DNA of 64,000 nt, from the NCBI GenBank assembly GCA_019246215.1, contig JAFAQT010000001.1, positions 5,225-69,224 on the forward strand. Reading direction: 5' to 3'. Position 1 is the stretch's first letter. Every line of letters starts with the position of its first letter. Source of the DNA: Verrucomicrobiota bacterium. GTDB taxonomy: Bacteria > Verrucomicrobiota > Verrucomicrobiia > Chthoniobacterales > JAFAMB01. The translations under genes were made by a program, and so were the position numbers. The notes beneath the pieces are model-generated. The model saw nothing but the letters and a program-made list of their open reading frames with translations. It made no database searches and had not been told where the DNA came from. This document shows, piece by piece, positions 15,828-27,218 of the stretch.

Positions 15828-16748
15828 ATGCCCGCAAAGTTTCGCGTTAATTCTCCCGGAGGAGAACCTTTCGAACGAGAAGTTAACAATACCGCCACGA
15901 TCGGGCGGACTCCGGACAATACCATTCCACTATCGGGCAACCATGTTTCCCGCCAGCACGCGATAGTGCGTTGTCACAATGGCTTCCAGTATCAGATCAT
16001 GGATCTTGGCAGCCGGAACGGAACGTTCGTCAATGATCAGCGGGTGGTGATGCCGGTCACCCTCGAACCAGGTGCCAGAGTCAGAATCGCGAATTACGAG
16101 CTCGTGTTCGATCAATCTCCCGACGACGAACCCTCTGGGAACGTCGATGCAACGCTTGCGGCAGGGAGTATGGAAGGGCACCAGGCCGTATTGTCCGTCG
16201 CAATACTTGTCTGTGACATCCGCGGTTTCAGTTCGATGGCCGAAAAACTGGGTGAGCGTGAACTCGCCCAAATCATCGGTAATTGGTTTCGCGACATCGG
16301 GAATGCTGTGCAATCTGCCGGTGGGATTATCGACAAATATATTGGTGACGCCTTGCTGGCTTACTGGCCGGCACGAGATGAGGAGGGAACCGAATGCGCA
16401 GTCTGCTTGGACGTGGCGCTGACCATTCTCCAACTTGCGGCCAATCGAGTTTGGCCGGGAACCGAGACTCCGTTTCGCGTCGGGATTGCAGTTCATTTCG
16501 GCCGCGTGACAAGCAGCAATATTGGCCAGGTCGCAATGAGAGATGCCACGATCATTGGCGACACAGTGAACACGGCTTTCCGGCTCGAGGGTGTCATGAA
16601 GGAATTAGACCAGAACCTGGTCCTCTCGCAGGATGTCGTTACAGTCTTGCCCGCCAGATACGATTTGGTGAAATTTGGAGAGTTCCAGCTGAAAGGCAAA
16701 AGCCAGGCAGTCCGTGTTTACGGGCTGCGGGATCTACGGGGGAATTAG
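15828..16748 (+). CDS. FHA domain fused to a class III adenylate/guanylate cyclase domain
   Basis: N-terminal FHA: TIGRTPDNTIPLSGNHVSRQHAIV...DLGSRNGTFVND. C-terminal cyclase: VLVCDIRGFSSMAEKLG, DKYIGDALLAYW, IGDTVNTAFRLE. Confidence 0.85.
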   Translation: MPAKFRVNSPGGEPFEREVNNTATIGRTPDNTIPLSGNHVSRQHAIVRCHNGFQYQIMDLGSRNGTFVNDQRVVMPVTLEPGARVRIANYELVFDQSPDDEPSGNVDATLAAGSMEGHQAVLSVAILVCDIRGFSSMAEKLGERELAQIIGNWFRDIGNAVQSAGGIIDKYIGDALLAYWPARDEEGTECAVCLDVALTILQLAANRVWPGTETPFRVGIAVHFGRVTSSNIGQVAMRDATIIGDTVNTAFRLEGVMKELDQNLVLSQDVVTVLPARYDLVKFGEFQLKGKSQAVRVYGLRDLRGN

Positions 16749-16924: not shown

Positions 16925-19186
16925 TTAGCCACGCTCTCTTTTGCCCAGGAACCAGTAGGAGCAGACAAATCCGCCGATCATCCACAATAAAAGTGATGCG
17001 CAGGCGACCCAAATCGGTCGAGTCTCAGTGTAGAGGGTTCCTGTTTTGAGTCGTTCTCCGGTTCTTGATTTGGTCCAGTCGCTGATGTTGAAATAAGCGA
17101 TAGGATAGTCCCGGGCGAGTGCTCCGGAAATTTTCTGGTTAATCAAAAAACTAACATCCGCGATGCGTTGAGAGGCAAAGCTAGGCATAACCTGGCTTAA
17201 GGTCAGGACAGGTAATGTCATGTCCTTGGCCGGTACTGTGAAACCTGAAAAGAGGATTTGCGGGATGAGCAGCAGCGGAACCAGCATGACCGCCTGCATT
17301 GGAGACCTGGCGTAAGCGGACGTCGTCAAACCGATCCCCGTTGCGGCGAAGGCCAGGAGAATGAGCCCGATGATCTGCCATAGAAAGGCCCCATGAACAC
17401 TGAACCTGCCGACCGCGATCGTCCCGTAGAGCAGGAGAGATTGGAATGCAGTGAGACCGGCCATCCAGATAAACTTGCTGGTCAAATAGCTCCAGCGGCT
17501 TAGCCCGACCAGCCGCTCACGGCGATAGATCGGCAGCTCTTTGATAATTTCCTGTGCCGAGTTGCTGCACCCGAACCAGAGTGTCGCAATATAGGCAAAA
17601 AACTGATCTAACTGCGGATCGGGTGCTGCCCAGGCCACCAAAGCTCCGATAATAATCGGTTGGGCCACCAGAATAATCAAGTTCTTGGAGTCAGCTCTGA
17701 AAATCGCAAGCTGCCGTTGCAAAAGTATCGGGAGCGAGAACGCCCTCCTTTTCTTTGTCAGTGGCGCAGGCGCATCCTGGTCCGGCTCCCCTGGAACCGT
17801 CGGTTCGAAGGGAGGGAGGATTGCTGATTCCATGGACTGAAGCGCGTCGTACAGCAAGGAGAGGCGGGTAACACCGAATCTTGAACGTGCCTGGTCGGGA
17901 GGACCCTGAAATACGACGCGCCCATCAGAAACAATGGCGATCTGGTCCATCAGGTAGACATTTTCCATCACGTGCGTAGTGCAGATCACAGTGCAGCCCG
18001 TATCAGCCAGGCGGCGTAATAGCTCCATCAGTTTGAATTCCGCCAGAGGATCCAGTCCCGAGGTCGGCTCATCCAGAAACAAAAGAGGCGGACGACTCAA
18101 TAGTTCGACTCCCACACTGACCCGCTTCCGCTGCCCACCGGACAAGCGACCGATCTTCAGGTTTACCCGGTCGGCCAATCCGAGACTGACGATGGTGTGA
18201 TCGACCAGTTTCACAATCTCCTGCCGAGGTGTTCCTGCAGGTAATCGCAGACGAGCAGCAAAGGTGAGCGCTTCGGTGACCGTCAGGTCAGAGTGAACTA
18301 TATCGTCTTGGGGGACGTAACCGAATAACGAGCGAAGCTGGCCGAGGTTTTTGTACAGATCGGTCTGATCGAACCGAACCTTTCCGCTTTCAGCAGGTCG
18401 AAGACCGCTCAAAGCGTCCAGAAGCGTGGTTTTCCCGGCGCCGCTTGGTCCAAGTATCCCGATGAACTGACCAGGTTCCGCCACAAAACCTGCACGGTTC
18501 AAGATCGGACCGTTGTCACCTTGGCGAGTAAGCCCGATAGCTAAAATGCGGCCCACGGAAAGGCGCCGGACGCGAACGAGCCGCCTGCCATCGTAAATAA
18601 AGAAAAATGGTCCCAATTGAATCTGGTCGCCGATCACGAGATCGTGTTCGTCGAAACGGCGACCGTTGACGAAGGATCCTGATTTGCTATGAAGATCGAG
18701 TAATCGATATCCTTTCGGCCCGGATTCGATCATTGCATGGCGTCTCGAGACGACAGGATCGCTTAAGACAACATCGACCTCCTCGCTTCGCCCGAAAATG
18801 AGGTCCGACCCGAGAGGGATGTCTGCTGTCGGTGTTCCTTTATACAAAACAGTACCGATGGGATTGACCAACTCCGCTGCACCTGAAGATTCGTCGGTGC
18901 CGACGCCAAAGGCCAAAGTGACTGGACCGACCTGGATCTGATCCCCTGACTTGAGCGCGGTCCGACCCGAGATACGGTTCCCGTTCACCGCGGTTCCGCG
19001 TTGACTGCCGAGGTCCTCAATAAACCACGCTTCACGTTCGAATAGAATCCGGCAGTGACGCCGCGATACTTCCGGATGCCCCAGAATCAGATCGACTTCC
19101 GCAGCCCGGCCAAGGACCACACTTTCACCGCGCAGCAACTCCGAGCGCGGCGGGAGCCCGGCAAGAATGGAGATCGGCATTTCCAA
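16925..19186 (-). CDS. ABC transporter with two N-terminal FHA domains, one NBD and an ABC-2/ABCG-type permease in a single polypeptide
   Basis: FHA1: VVLGRAAEVDLILGHPEVSRRHCRI...GSQRGTAVNG. FHA2: LIFGRSEEVDVVLSDPVVSRRHAMI...HSKSGSFVNG. Walker A GPSGAGKTT, signature LSGGQRKRV, Walker B LLFLDEPTSGLD, and six C-terminal TM helices. Confidence 0.85.
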   Translation of the reverse strand: MEMPISILAGLPPRSELLRGESVVLGRAAEVDLILGHPEVSRRHCRILFEREAWFIEDLGSQRGTAVNGNRISGRTALKSGDQIQVGPVTLAFGVGTDESSGAAELVNPIGTVLYKGTPTADIPLGSDLIFGRSEEVDVVLSDPVVSRRHAMIESGPKGYRLLDLHSKSGSFVNGRRFDEHDLVIGDQIQLGPFFFIYDGRRLVRVRRLSVGRILAIGLTRQGDNGPILNRAGFVAEPGQFIGILGPSGAGKTTLLDALSGLRPAESGKVRFDQTDLYKNLGQLRSLFGYVPQDDIVHSDLTVTEALTFAARLRLPAGTPRQEIVKLVDHTIVSLGLADRVNLKIGRLSGGQRKRVSVGVELLSRPPLLFLDEPTSGLDPLAEFKLMELLRRLADTGCTVICTTHVMENVYLMDQIAIVSDGRVVFQGPPDQARSRFGVTRLSLLYDALQSMESAILPPFEPTVPGEPDQDAPAPLTKKRRAFSLPILLQRQLAIFRADSKNLIILVAQPIIIGALVAWAAPDPQLDQFFAYIATLWFGCSNSAQEIIKELPIYRRERLVGLSRWSYLTSKFIWMAGLTAFQSLLLYGTIAVGRFSVHGAFLWQIIGLILLAFAATGIGLTTSAYARSPMQAVMLVPLLLIPQILFSGFTVPAKDMTLPVLTLSQVMPSFASQRIADVSFLINQKISGALARDYPIAYFNISDWTKSRTGERLKTGTLYTETRPIWVACASLLLWMIGGFVCSYWFLGKRERG

Positions 19187-21611: not shown

Positions 21612-24600
21612 TTAGGCCCCTCGCGTCGATTTCGCCGGATAGCTTTCTGCCCTGAGGCTGAGGAGCTTGCAAACAAACGGAGCGGTCCGGCTTCCTTCTT
21701 GCCGGGCAAGCTCTTCGACAGATCCCGCAGCAACAACTTCGCCGCCGCCATCCCCAGCCTCAGGACCAACATCGAGAATATAATCGGCTTCTGCGATGAT
21801 ATCGAGGTTATGCTCGATGAGAATGACCGTGTTCCCGTCATCGACCAAGCGGTGCAGAACCTCTATGAGCAGTTCCACATCCGCCATATGCAAGCCGATT
21901 GTTGGCTCTTCGAGCAGATAAAGCGTGCTCTTTGGCGTGATGTTTCTCCTGAGCCTGTCCGTTAAACCTCGTCCAACGCCAGTCTTCAATTCACTGACAA
22001 TTTTCAGACGTTGTGCTTCGCCTCCACTTAGCGTTGGGCTCGGTTGCCCAAGCTGCAGATAACCAAGCCCGGTTTCAACCAGGAGTTCGAGTGCCTTGTG
22101 AATTCGCGGTTGAGATCTGAAGAATTCTGCGGCTTCTTCGATCGTTAGCTCGAGTAGATCGCCAATACTCTTGCCATTGTACTGGACTGCGAGAGTTTGG
22201 GAATTGAATCGCTTCCCCTGGCAGGCTTCGCAGGGGATATAGCTTGGAGGCAGGAAGTTCATTTCCAATTTGATAACTCCCTGCCCGGTGCAAGTCTCGC
22301 AACGGCCTCCCTCCGTGTTGAAGGAGAAACGGCTCCGGCTGTAACCGCGGATCCGGGATTCCGGAAGCTGAGCAAACAGTGCACGTATATCGTCGAAGAT
22401 CTTAACGTAGGTTGCCGGTATGGAACGAGATGTTTTGCCAATCGGCGATTGATCCACTTCGAATACGGCACCGAGGTGCTCGACGCCTGCGACTTCGTTC
22501 CAGGGATACGTTTCCGATGCCCCTTTCTTTCTTGTTCTTTGCAGATGGGCAGCGACGGCGGGCAACAGAACCGATCGCAAAATCGTGCTTTTTCCCGACC
22601 CGGAGACCCCGGTGATCACCGACAGTCGCCCGATCGGGAAACGGATGTCGATATTTTTGAGATTGTTCGCGTGCGCGCCCCGGATTGCGAGCCAGTCCAC
22701 GCCCTGCAACGGGCGCCACGAACCGCGCACCGGATGAGCAAGCGGGTGGGCTAGATATTTGCCCGTCACAGAATTCTCGCGCTTCACAATTTCTCTTATC
22801 GGGCCCAGGAAAACCAGGTTGCCGCCACTGCGTCCTGCGCCCGGCCCCAGATCGACGATCAAGTCTGAGCGCCTCATAGTTCCTTCATCATGCTCAACCA
22901 CGACCAGAGTATTGCCCTTCATTTTGAGCGCTTCCAAAGTGTCGAGAAGTCTCTCGTTGTCCCGGGGGTGTAATCCAATGGTGGGCTCATCCAAAACATA
23001 TAAAACGCCGCGCAGATTTGAGCCGAGCTGGGCGGCAAGCCGAATTCGTTGGGATTCGCCGCCGCTTAATGTTTTCGCTGGACGATTGAGCGTGAGATAC
23101 TCCAGGCCAACCTGTCGCATGAACAAGAGCCTTTGCTTGATTTCGGCGACGATGTCGGACGCAATCGAACGGTTCACCCCGGAAAATCGAAGATTCTCGA
23201 TCAGCGAGATGGTGTGCTTGATTGCGGTCCCGGTGATTTGGTCAATGGTATAGCCTTGCAACTGCACAGCTAGGGCGGTCGCGTTCAGACGCGCGCCTCG
23301 GCATTCAGGACATTGCTCCACGCTTTCTACGTCGACCGAATCGCTTCGGCGCTCGGCCATCAACTCAGCCGCCAGTCTTGACTCCGCTTTTTCATCGTCG
23401 TCACTGGTGAACGGCAGAATGTAACCATAACCCTTACAAGTTGGGCACCAGCCATGCGGCGAATTGAAGGAGAAAAGGCGCGGATCCAGCTCCTCAAACG
23501 AATCGCCGCAATTCGGACAGGTCATTTCGCTGCTCAACACGAATCGGTTAAACGCGGGAACGGGACTCGCCCCGTTATTGCCCAAGGAGTGATGCGAGGC
23601 GCGGTTCGGTTGAGGTTTTGGTGTCCATAGGAATGCAGAGCCATTCCCAACCTGCAACGCCGTCTTTACCAGTTGGTGCATCTGCTTGTTTTCGGGGTTT
23701 CTCAATTCGGCTATAACGACTTCGATCGTGTGTTCCCGATAGCGCTCCAGACTTGGAAATTCGTCGACCCCGTATCTTTTGCCATCAACGATTAACTCTT
23801 CGTATCCTTCCCGTTTGATCCAGATCGCAACTTCTTTGTGATACCCTTTACGCGCTTTTACGAGCGGCGCAGTCAGTGTCGCGCGCGTTTTCGCGACGAT
23901 ATCCCGGACCTGTCTCAATATTGCCGCCCCGCTTTGCTTGCTTACCGGGATGTTGCACCGAGGGCAATATTGGGTTCCGAGTTTAGCGAAGAGCAGCCGG
24001 AGAAAGTGATAGACCTCCGTCAATGTTGCGACTGTAGATTTCCCCCCTCCCTGGGTAAGTCTTTGCTCGATCGCCACAGTAGGCGGTATGCCCTCAACAT
24101 GATCCACATCGGGGCGTTCTAATTGTTCCACAAACTGCCGCGCGTAGGTCGACATGCTGTCCAAAAAACGGCGTTGACCTTCCGCGAAGAGTATATCAAA
24201 CGCCAAACTCGATTTTCCCGACCCGCTCAAGCCTGTAATAACTACCAATTTCTCATGTGGAAGCTCCAGGGAGAGATTTTTCAGATTGTGATGACGTCCT
24301 CCCTGCACTGTAATAACGGGCTTTAAGATCTTTCTTGGGATCTCAGCGACTCGGGCGCTCAATCGGGGTTCGCGGGTGGCGAGCTTTTCTCGAAGGAAAT
24401 TTCCAGTTTGAGAACGGGGTTGCTTCGCAACTTGCTCCGGAGTTCCTTCAGCAACGATCCTTCCGCCGTTAACGCCTGCTTCGGGGCCTAGATCGATGAT
24501 ATAATCGGCAGACTGGATGATATCCATGTTGTGTTCGATCACGATCAACGTGTCACCCCGATCCACCAGCTGCTGAAATAGCTTTAGAAGAGAGGCAATA

Positions 24601-27218
24601 TCATCAAAGTGTAAACCCGTTGTCGGCTCGTCGAAGATCAGGAGCGCGTGCCGACGGTTTTTCTTACTCTCCGCTAGATGACCGACGAGTTTAAGGCGCT
24701 GCGATTCACCTCCTGAGAGCACATTCACCGGTTGCCCGAGTCTCAAATAGCCGAGTCCGACCTGTTTGAGAAGTTCTAGCGGCTCCGCGAAGGCCTCGCG
24801 CCCTCCGTCGGGCCGAAAGAAAGCGATTGCTTCGGTCACCGTCAGTTCCAAGACATCGTGAATAGACTTGCCGCGCATCTTGATATTAAGCAAATGCGGC
24901 TGGTACCGTTTCCCGCCGCATTCACCGCAACGGATGTATTGATCACTGAGAAATTGCATTTCGACCTTCTCGTAACCAAGGCCGGCGCAACGTTCGCAAC
25001 GGCCGATTCCAGAGTTGAATGAGAACGCAGCGGGAGTCAATCCGGCAGCTCTCGACTCCGGCAGGCCCGCGAAAAGCTCCCTGACATGATCGAACACCCC
25101 TATGTAAAGTGCAGGCGTCGACCTTGGAGACCGCGCCAGGGGCGATTGATCCACGAGTATGATCTCATCGATGTCGTGCACTCCGAGGACTCGGTCGCAG
25201 ATTCCGGGTGTCTCCTCGCTTGAGCCGCCCTTAAGCCGAATCAGATTCTGGTAGAGGACATCCTGGACCAGAGTGCTTTTTCCCGATCCGGAAACACCTG
25301 TTACGCAACAGAGGGTGTGGAGAGGAAATCTGACATCGATATTCTTGAGGTTGTGCTCTCGAGCCCCGAAAATTTCGAGGTATCTTTTCGGCTTCCGTCG
25401 CTGCGCTGGAGGAAGAATCCGTTTTCTCCGCGTCAGATAGGCGGCGGTAAGCGACTCGGGTGCCGCATCACCGATCTCGTCGATCGGACCCTGATAGACC
25501 AGTTCTCCGCCGAGTTCACCGCGACCGGGGCCGATCTCGATCAGGTTATCCGCGCTTCGAATGACAGCCTCTTCGTGCTCGACCACCAGAAGAGTGTTTC
25601 CTTTATCGCGCAAGCCACGCAGCACGCCAATCAAACGATGAACATCTCTCGGGTGAAGTCCGACACTCGGCTCGTCGAGCACAAAAAGAGTGTTAACAAG
25701 AGAGGCGCCGAGGCAAGTGGTCAGATTCACCCTTTGCACTTCACCGCCGGAAAGGGAGCGCGTTGGACGATCCAGCGCTAGATACCCAAGCCCGACATCA
25801 ATCAGATATTCAAGACGGGAAACAATTTGCGATCGGACAACCTCCGTTGCGCTGTCGCTTTCGGCGATGCGCAGTTGCTTCATGAGGCCTGCCAATTTCT
25901 CGACCGAGATCTGCTGCAGATCTGGGAGCGTCAATCGTTGAGTATCAATGACCACCCGAAAATGCAGCGTCTCCGGTTTGAAACGCGACCCCTGGCACTG
26001 CGGACAAAGAGTGTAGGCGCGGTAGCGGCTCAGAAACACCCGGACGTGCATTTTGTAGGCGCGCGATTCCATCCAGTCAAAGAACCCGCGGATTCCGTAC
26101 CATCCGCCGCTCTGCCAAACCTCCTCCGCTGTCAAATCAGGACGAAGATCGCCGTTGATAACCCATTCCTGGTCAGCTTTGGGGAGATCCTCAAAAGCAC
26201 AATGGATATCGATTTGTCGCTCCAAGGCTCGGGAAATCAAATCTTGCTGACACTCGCGCATCTGACCCGTTTGAAAGGGTTTCACGACCCCATCGGCGAT
26301 ACTCAGGCTGCGATTGGGCATGGCGCGGTCGAGGTCAATTCCGATCGTCCGTCCGAAGCCGCGGCAACCCGGACAGGCCCCAAGCGGATTATTAAAAGAA
26401 AATAGACCAGGCGCTGGTGGGCGGATCTCTATATCGCAGTAGGGACAATGCCAGCCAATGGAAAAACGATGCTCTTCGACTGGATTGAGCGCGACGATTT
26501 TCAGCTGCCCTTTTCCGTAGTTTAAGCCCTGCTCAATTGCCTCTACGAGCCGGGAATGGTTGGCCTCGCCCATTGTTAGACGATCCTGAATCACGAAAAC
26601 GAGACCCGGAAGGCGCTTTATGGCAGGCGCAATGTCGGTACGGATCATTTCCTGATTCAGCCAAATCCGAAGGAAGCCTTGCTGATTCAAGAAGGAGAAA
26701 AAATCGCCAGGGTCTGTACCTGGCGGTGCCGGTACTCCGAAGGTTACAAGAACCGCTCGAGGCGATAGTTTATTGAGTAGTGTTGCAGCAATGCTAATTG
26801 GGGTTTCGCGAACAATCTCGCGCTGGCATTCAGGACAGAATGCTCGTGCCACGCGGGGCATTAGGAGTTTCAGATAATCGTTGATCTCGGTCATCGTTCC
26901 CACGGTGGACCGCGTGGTGCGAACACGGTTGGCCTGCTCGATCGCGATGGCCGGCGGAATACCGAGAATTTCGTCCACGAGCGGTTTGTCCATTCGCTCG
27001 AGAAACTGGCGAGTGTAGGGGCTGAATGTTTCGACATATCGACGTTGCCCTTCCGCGTAGATCGTGTCGAAAGCCAGACTCGATTTGCCGCTGCCGCTTG
27101 GACCGGTGATCACGTGGAACTTGTTCAATTCAAGATCGAGGTTGATCCCTTTCAGGTTATTTTGGCGTGCGCCACGAATAATGATCGTATCCCGGGCATG
27201 CTCGACAAAACTGGGCAT
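21612..27218 (-). CDS. tandem-duplicated UvrA-like excinuclease ABC subunit A (UvrA-UvrA fusion, four ABC ATPase modules)
   Basis: 1868 aa. There are four Walker A sites (GPSGSGKSS about aa 39, GVSGSGKST about aa 641, GLSGSGKSS about aa 996, GVSGSGKST about aa 1537) and four LSGGE(V/S/A)QR signatures. Repeated CxxC zinc modules are present. Each half begins like canonical UvrA ([13 protein letters not shown]... / [13 protein letters not shown]...). Confidence 0.9.

Follow-up and report, generated by a model that had tools for sequence, protein, structure and literature searches.

In a 64,000-nucleotide stretch of a Verrucomicrobiota genome (assembly GCA_019246215.1, contig JAFAQT010000001.1, positions 5,225 to 69,224; hereafter the window), the gene for the nucleotide excision repair (NER) protein UvrA encodes two complete UvrA units in a single polypeptide of about 205 kDa. 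Judged by domain and residue mapping, the two halves have specialised in reciprocal ways: the insertion domain and the UvrB-contact residues are present in the N-terminal unit (N unit) only, and the full DNA-binding arginine patch in the C-terminal unit (C unit) only. UvrA normally is a symmetric homodimer, and this symmetry hides the role of each protomer, ATPase site, insertion domain and UvrB dock, as well as whether one or two UvrB are needed. The tandem protein, with its complementary halves, may represent a single-chain and asymmetric form of this dimer.

Gene architecture

The tandem uvrA gene (21612..27218, minus strand, as for all of its features given below) is a single open reading frame with an ATG start, 1868 amino acids (aa) plus stop, and no internal stop codon. 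Its N unit (aa 1-945; 24384..27218) has the complete class I UvrA architecture and aligns along its entire length with T. maritima UvrA (3pih; 776 bits), and its C unit (aa 968-1868; 21612..24317) is class I-like without the insertion domain, aligning with C. thermocellum UvrA (9gxk; 833 bits) in three pieces. The inter-unit linker (aa 946-967; 24318..24383) comprises about 22 residues, six of them basic and two acidic. Among homologues the linker is poorly conserved (mean identity 0.36) and ranges from 23 to 69 aa in length, whereas the N and C halves reach mean identities of 0.74 and 0.72, respectively. Purifying selection acts on the two units with equal strength, and none of the four ATPase sites is disrupted.

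The four Walker A motifs begin at aa 39, 641, 996 and 1537, LSGGE.QR signatures were located at aa 489, 834, 1384 and 1730, Walker B motifs at aa 511, 859, 1406 and 1766, and H-loops at aa 545, 893, 1440 and 1800. The CxxC pairs of all three zinc modules were found in both halves. All 16 ATPase motifs are invariant among 117 sequences, the sole deviation from the canonical residues being a glutamate (E1770) for aspartate in the fourth Walker B motif (LYLLEEPT; 21900..21923). This glutamate is present in 117/117 close homologues, and in merely 8 of the 52 C units of the wider family described below. The initial annotation, made from the sequence without database searches, had reported a single frame with two UvrA units joined by a basic linker of about 20 aa, and within it four Walker A sites, four LSGGE.QR signatures and repeated CxxC modules; each of these elements was recovered in its place.

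With the UvrA family models, the whole protein scored 2036 bits for NF001503 (cut-off 1147) and 1998 bits for TIGR00630 (cut-off 729.8), with E-values of 0 and each model matched twice. Aligned separately, as the initial annotation had proposed, the halves score about 960-1060 bits each: 960 and 1045 bits for TIGR00630, both above the cut-off, and 980 and 1059 bits for NF001503, slightly below the cut-off of 1147. In Pfam, UvrA_inter was matched twice and UvrA_DNA-bind once. Between the halves, identity amounts to 44% in the ATPase core and 32% in the N-terminal part, and identity to E. coli UvrA to 43% for the N half and 47% for the C half. Each half is nearer to E. coli UvrA than to its partner half, in agreement with the earlier view that the halves are old and clearly diverged. 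Judged from its sequence and that of its homologues, the gene is almost certainly real, conserved and functional.

Complementary losses in the two units

Functional residues were mapped via E. coli UvrA and, independently, via HMMER alignment to 9gxk. In E. coli UvrA, R216 and E222 are UvrB-contact residues, R712, R722, R724 and R730 form the DNA-binding patch, and the insertion domain aids the discrimination of damaged from undamaged DNA (PMC3025350). The residue pairs through which ATP-binding domain I forms the dimer interface of UvrA, and the DNA-inserting residues Y62, Q65 and F66, were taken from PMC12796330.

The N unit carries a UvrB-binding domain (aa ~119-255; 26454..26864; Pfam PF17760), in which the equivalents of E. 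coli R216 and E222, namely R223 and E229, do not vary among the 117 sequences. Its insertion domain (aa ~286-404; 26007..26363; PF17755 at aa 295-362) lies between the CxxC pairs C282 and C405, with a CxxC-to-CxxC spacing of 123 aa in the window protein and of 122-124 aa in 117/117 sequences. The DNA-binding patch of this unit, as mapped from E. coli UvrA, is degenerate (aa 713-731; 25026..25082): R713 is its sole invariant arginine, position 723 is arginine in the window protein and K, I or V in most homologues, and positions 725 and 731 are mostly A, S or V.

The C unit leaves residues ~310-427 of 9gxk, corresponding to the insertion domain, unmatched. Cysteine-pair spacing delimits a stump of 44-45 aa at this place (aa ~1262-1302; 23313..23435), with 45 aa from the CxxC at aa 1258 to that at aa 1303 and 36-45 aa in 117/117 sequences. 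A UvrB-binding-domain-like fold is present (aa ~1086-1200; 23619..23963; PF17760 at aa 1095-1196). Its contact positions, for which the two independent alignments (E. coli UvrA and HMMER to 9gxk) concur, are occupied by Q1179 and K1185 and are variable among homologues. All four DNA-binding arginines are kept (R1612, R1622, R1624 and R1630; 22329..22385) and invariant in 117/117 sequences, two to three of the four being lost from the N unit; of the two units, the C unit has the more canonical ATPase core. In the wider family, the R216 equivalent is arginine in 41/47 N units and unconserved in C units, and the R730 equivalent is never arginine in N units and arginine in 32/52 C units.

An AlphaFold model of the C unit has a predicted local distance difference test score (pLDDT) of 75 and a predicted template modelling score (pTM) of 0.68. 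Its fold matches are class I UvrAs, the best being 3uwx_A with a template modelling (TM) score of 0.71. The UvrB-binding-domain fold is predicted with confidence (pLDDT ~80-87), and the insertion-domain stump contains two short helices. Between the UvrB-binding-domain fold and zinc module 2 lies a low-complexity insert (aa ~1204-1221; 23554-23607), for which disorder is predicted (pLDDT below 50) and which canonical UvrA lacks.

Dimer interface and proposed mechanism

The dimer-interface and DNA-inserting positions are essentially invariant in both halves. Some of these positions show fixed half-specific differences, given here as N/C: Y61/F1018, T64/S1021, A90/S-or-T1047, I91/V1048, V508/R1403 and T510/V1405. 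These differences are consistent with a conserved heterotypic N:C contact, though no proof of one. In the C-unit model the interface segment (unit residues 51-98) has a pLDDT below 50, and it may become ordered on pairing.

We propose that the N and C units pair via ATP-binding domain I while held together by the flexible linker, and so form, within one chain, an asymmetric counterpart of the UvrA2 dimer. DNA would be bound mainly by the surface of the C unit, and the N unit would contribute the sole insertion domain, through which damage would mainly be sensed. The N unit would also constitute the canonical UvrB dock, with UvrB being recruited mainly or only there in an A2B1-like stoichiometry. 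As the M. tuberculosis complexes MtUvrA2UvrB and MtUvrA2UvrB2 have both been solved (9ga3, 9ga4), a one-UvrB loader is plausible. The parts of this proposal differ in strength. The interface residues and the variable linker make intramolecular pairing as a pseudo-heterodimer, and hence a single-chain asymmetric UvrA dimer, probable; a single productive UvrB site per chain is suggested by the contact residues at somewhat less than even odds. For the full reading of an obligate asymmetric single-chain dimer, in which the N unit discriminates damage and docks one UvrB and the C unit provides the main DNA surface, we estimate a probability of roughly 0.3.

Distribution of the tandem gene

A protein search gave at least 120 relatives; among the matches listed, 116 exceed 1800 aa in length, and these full-length homologues share 61-99% identity with the window protein. 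Several bear the name "excinuclease ABC subunit UvrA" and stem from Verrucomicrobia or Chthoniobacterales metagenome-assembled genomes (MAGs). In a collection with one genome per species, a genome scan yielded 287 matching stretches, each covering query residues ~1-1860, of which 80 loci were kept. The kept loci come from Chthoniobacterales, Terrimicrobiaceae, Verrucomicrobiales, Akkermansiaceae (Akkermansia among them), Luteolibacter, Prosthecobacter and Chthoniobacter. The tandem gene is the ordinary housekeeping uvrA typical of the phylum Verrucomicrobiota and is already annotated as such. The rarity implied by the initial annotation does not hold: the tandem form is the standard uvrA of the phylum, the majority of the best cluster hits described below are of double length as well, and public databases already label both as UvrA. 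Its view of the fusion as genuine is borne out, with all four ATPase sites kept in the 116 full-length homologues.

Three loci, from two Luteolibacter MAGs and an Akkermansiaceae MAG, carry another UvrA-like gene of ~818 aa that stands alone, 0.7-5 kb downstream of the tandem uvrA (L070:7738-10179, L069:8341-10755 and L076:12875-15319), so that some Verrucomicrobiota have three UvrA units. The product of the L070 gene matches E. coli UvrA with 48-49% identity in two BLASTP segments. It retains a UvrB-binding domain whose contact positions are occupied by R and E; the insertion domain is wholly deleted (CHQCEGMGCPTCNHLR), and the C-terminus is short.

Tandem UvrA family and phylogeny

For a wider view, the C half was searched with HMMER against 1.84 billion cluster representatives (50% identity clusters), and the best 150 hits were retained. 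More than 110 of these are double-length UvrAs of 1550-2343 aa. Architectures were sorted by domain mapping and by the spacing of conserved cysteine pairs; an insertion-domain hidden Markov model built from Verrucomicrobial N units was dropped, as it was too lineage-specific for other UvrAs and missed the canonical-length protein P0265. Four architectures were distinguished: a full N unit with a stump-bearing C unit, as in the window protein and in a Planctomycetota MAG protein (P0159); insertion domains in both units; the reverse arrangement, with the insertion-domain stump in the N unit; and proteins of ~1600 aa in which two class II-like units both lack the UvrB-binding domain.

A neighbour-joining tree of 235 separated units, which as a distance tree without bootstrap is to be read as indicative, places the N unit of the window protein within a pure clade of 47 N units, and its C unit within a clade of 49 C units and three single-unit proteins. 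In this tree each half groups with its counterparts, N with N and C with C. Since 41 proteins contribute to both clades, the fusion appears to be old and orthologous across the family, that is, on the evidence of the tree, ancient and shared by at least ~41 clusters at 50% identity. As the C unit of a few members still has its insertion domain at full length, this domain would have been lost after fusion.

Several family members deserve separate mention. The three single units nested in the C-unit clade (P0236, 944 aa; P0263, 957 aa; P0265, 914 aa) carry a short stump; they are probably fragments of tandem genes, P0236 lying on a 3.5-kb contig, and may alternatively represent a naturally split version. 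Two proteins (P0121, 2334 aa; P0125, 2343 aa) have both insertion domains and a C-terminal extension of ~350 residues past the second unit. A member of the same tandem family of 1809 aa (P0194), on an 817-kb contig, is labelled 'MAG: Candidatus Kinetoplastibacterium crithidii', an unexpected taxon that may reflect a mislabelled bin or lateral transfer. The class II-like tandems (P0193, P0202, P0211, P0217 and ~20 others; 1590-1680 aa) consist of two units, each with a 138-aa insertion domain and no UvrB-binding domain. These tandems may correspond to the duplicated forms, of UvrA2 type, to which the initial annotation refers.

Comparison with known systems

Like each unit of the window protein, class I UvrAs (E. 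coli, G. stearothermophilus, T. maritima, M. tuberculosis, C. thermocellum) have a two-module ATP-binding cassette (ABC) ATPase core, three zinc modules and a UvrB-binding domain fold. The equivalents of Y62, Q65 and F66 and the interface residues are kept here, and the N unit has the full domain set. Class I UvrAs are homodimers, whereas the window protein joins two units in one chain; compared with them, the C unit has neither an insertion domain nor contacts of the R216/E222 type, two to three of the four arginines for DNA binding are gone from the N unit, and the fourth Walker B motif has glutamate for aspartate.

Class II UvrAs (D. radiodurans UvrA2, DrrC, Ecm16) are likewise dimeric ABC ATPases and represent paralogues minus one accessory domain. 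In these proteins the UvrB-binding domain is missing and the insertion domain retained, the reverse of the C unit. Membership of the window protein in class II was rejected, PF17760 being present in both units; among Protein Data Bank (PDB) entries, class I chains reach 776-833 bits, compared with 554-580 bits for D. radiodurans UvrA2 (2vf7) and 416-474 bits for Ecm16 (7sh1). Nor does the window protein belong to the class II-like tandem family of ~1600 aa.

Among catalogued families, the NCBIfam equivalog NF001885 (PRK00635; 'excinuclease ABC subunit A', 1809 positions) describes a double-length tandem UvrA like the window protein, which aligns along the model with 1157.8 bits. This score is far below the cut-off of 3054, and the window protein therefore belongs to a different tandem UvrA lineage. 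None of five other tandem representatives reached the cut-off either, and no link to the NF001885 family was found among them. We take NF001885/PRK00635 to be the long UvrA of Chlamydia (~1786 aa).

Asymmetry within ABC proteins has general precedent in this superfamily, in heterodimeric or single-chain members with one degenerate site. There, as here, duplication and fusion were followed by asymmetric specialisation of the halves. Such proteins have a degenerate site, whereas all four nucleotide sites of the window protein retain the catalytic motifs and its asymmetry lies in accessory domains and binding surfaces. A natural equivalent of an engineered protein is also at hand: the C unit resembles the insertion-domain deletion E. 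coli UvrA delta290-400, in which the domain is removed from both protomers and damage discrimination is reduced (PMC3025350), whereas here one insertion domain per pseudo-dimer is left.

Alternative explanations

Several points weigh against the proposed asymmetric single-chain dimer. The present data are compatible with intra-chain as well as inter-chain pairing, and the residue equivalences depend on alignment in a variable region. The well-folded UvrB-binding-domain fold of the C unit may bind UvrB or Mfd through other residues. Furthermore, given the three related loci with an extra UvrA-like gene, some lineages may possess a further UvrA alongside the fused protein. The most probable alternative is that the chain does not fold back, and that two chains pair between molecules, either N:N and C:C or domain-swapped, into an assembly of four UvrA units. 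The canonical interface residues kept in both halves would make homotypic contacts possible, and the linker of the window protein is short at just ~22 aa; the fixed half-specific interface differences, however, fit a heterotypic N:C contact, the reciprocal losses leave either half incomplete alone, and linker length varies freely among homologues, so that we regard inter-chain pairing as unlikely. It is more doubtful still that one half, probably the C unit, acts outside NER, in a drug or lesion response of the UvrA2/DrrC/Ecm16 type or as a regulatory ATPase, and is merely co-translated with a normal UvrA. While the missing insertion domain, the missing UvrB-contact residues and the glutamate in the Walker B motif of site 4 would suit such a role, class II UvrAs show the opposite pattern of domain loss, and the N unit, having lost arginines that the C unit retains, would make a poor UvrA alone; moreover, no biosynthetic or resistance genes were found near the tandem uvrA. 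The initial annotation had suggested that the halves may specialise, for instance in damage sensing versus UvrB loading or in drug resistance: complementary losses are indeed seen, and the drug-resistance role is disfavoured by the UvrB-binding fold in both units and by the housekeeping setting.

The same absences in the C unit could be taken as signs of decay into a non-functional duplicate. This is very improbable, as the C half is conserved like the N half (0.72 versus 0.74), its ATPase motifs, zinc ligands and DNA-binding arginines are all invariant, and it outscores the N half on solved UvrAs (833 versus 776 bits). That the fusion itself is an artefact, be it a stop or frameshift missed between two neighbouring genes or a chimeric assembly, can practically be dismissed. 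The same uninterrupted architecture occurs in 116 independent database proteins and in the genome of a RefSeq isolate (Verrucomicrobium sp. GAS474, WP_093288394.1, 1906 aa), a stop-free frame of at least 1750 codons is present in 72 of the 80 kept loci, and in none of the 80 does a stop fall at the unit junction (~codon 968). The remaining eight loci are cut by a contig end or have a frame broken after 1231-1651 codons, far past the junction; the latter breaks, in loci of 'MFD' long-read MAGs (L015, L037 and L060), are probably assembly frameshift errors rather than split genes.

Novelty and significance

The tandem architecture as such is already catalogued, in RefSeq names and in an NCBIfam model. 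A full-text literature search, with most subscription journals outside its scope, found no paper on tandem or fused UvrA or its asymmetry and gave only definitions of classes I and II and insertion-domain data. The pattern of reciprocal losses may be previously undescribed; the novelty, if so, lies in the loss of a different function from each half. The value of the protein lies in an experimental handle and in an evolutionary example of subfunctionalisation after fusion, not in a new type of system. With one insertion domain, one canonical UvrB dock and one full DNA-binding patch, a single-chain UvrA allows mutations to be introduced into one 'protomer' only, and represents a natural asymmetric tool. 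If the obligate asymmetric dimer is correct, a whole phylum would run NER with an A2B1-type loader, and a ready tool would be available to separate the roles of the two protomers and of the four ATPase sites.

Genomic setting

The neighbours of the tandem uvrA are housekeeping genes (tuf, rpoB, rpoC, mutS, sufB/D and ymdB). No second UvrA-like sequence was found in the 64-kb window, and neither uvrB nor uvrC among the 20 larger window ORFs scanned. For LexA boxes, the Verrucomicrobia-type patterns TGTTC-N4-TGTTC and TGTTC-N4-GAACA were scanned; the 365-bp region upstream of the gene contained no matches, and window-wide counts were at chance level. A promoter and terminator scan gave nothing beyond shuffle expectation and no internal signal at the unit junction. 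Elsewhere in the window, a gene for an FHA-domain adenylate/guanylate cyclase (15828-16748, plus strand) adjoins, in convergent orientation, a gene for an ABC-2 transporter whose ATPase has two N-terminal FHA domains (16925-19186, minus strand); this pair may form a phospho-threonine-regulated export or signalling module.

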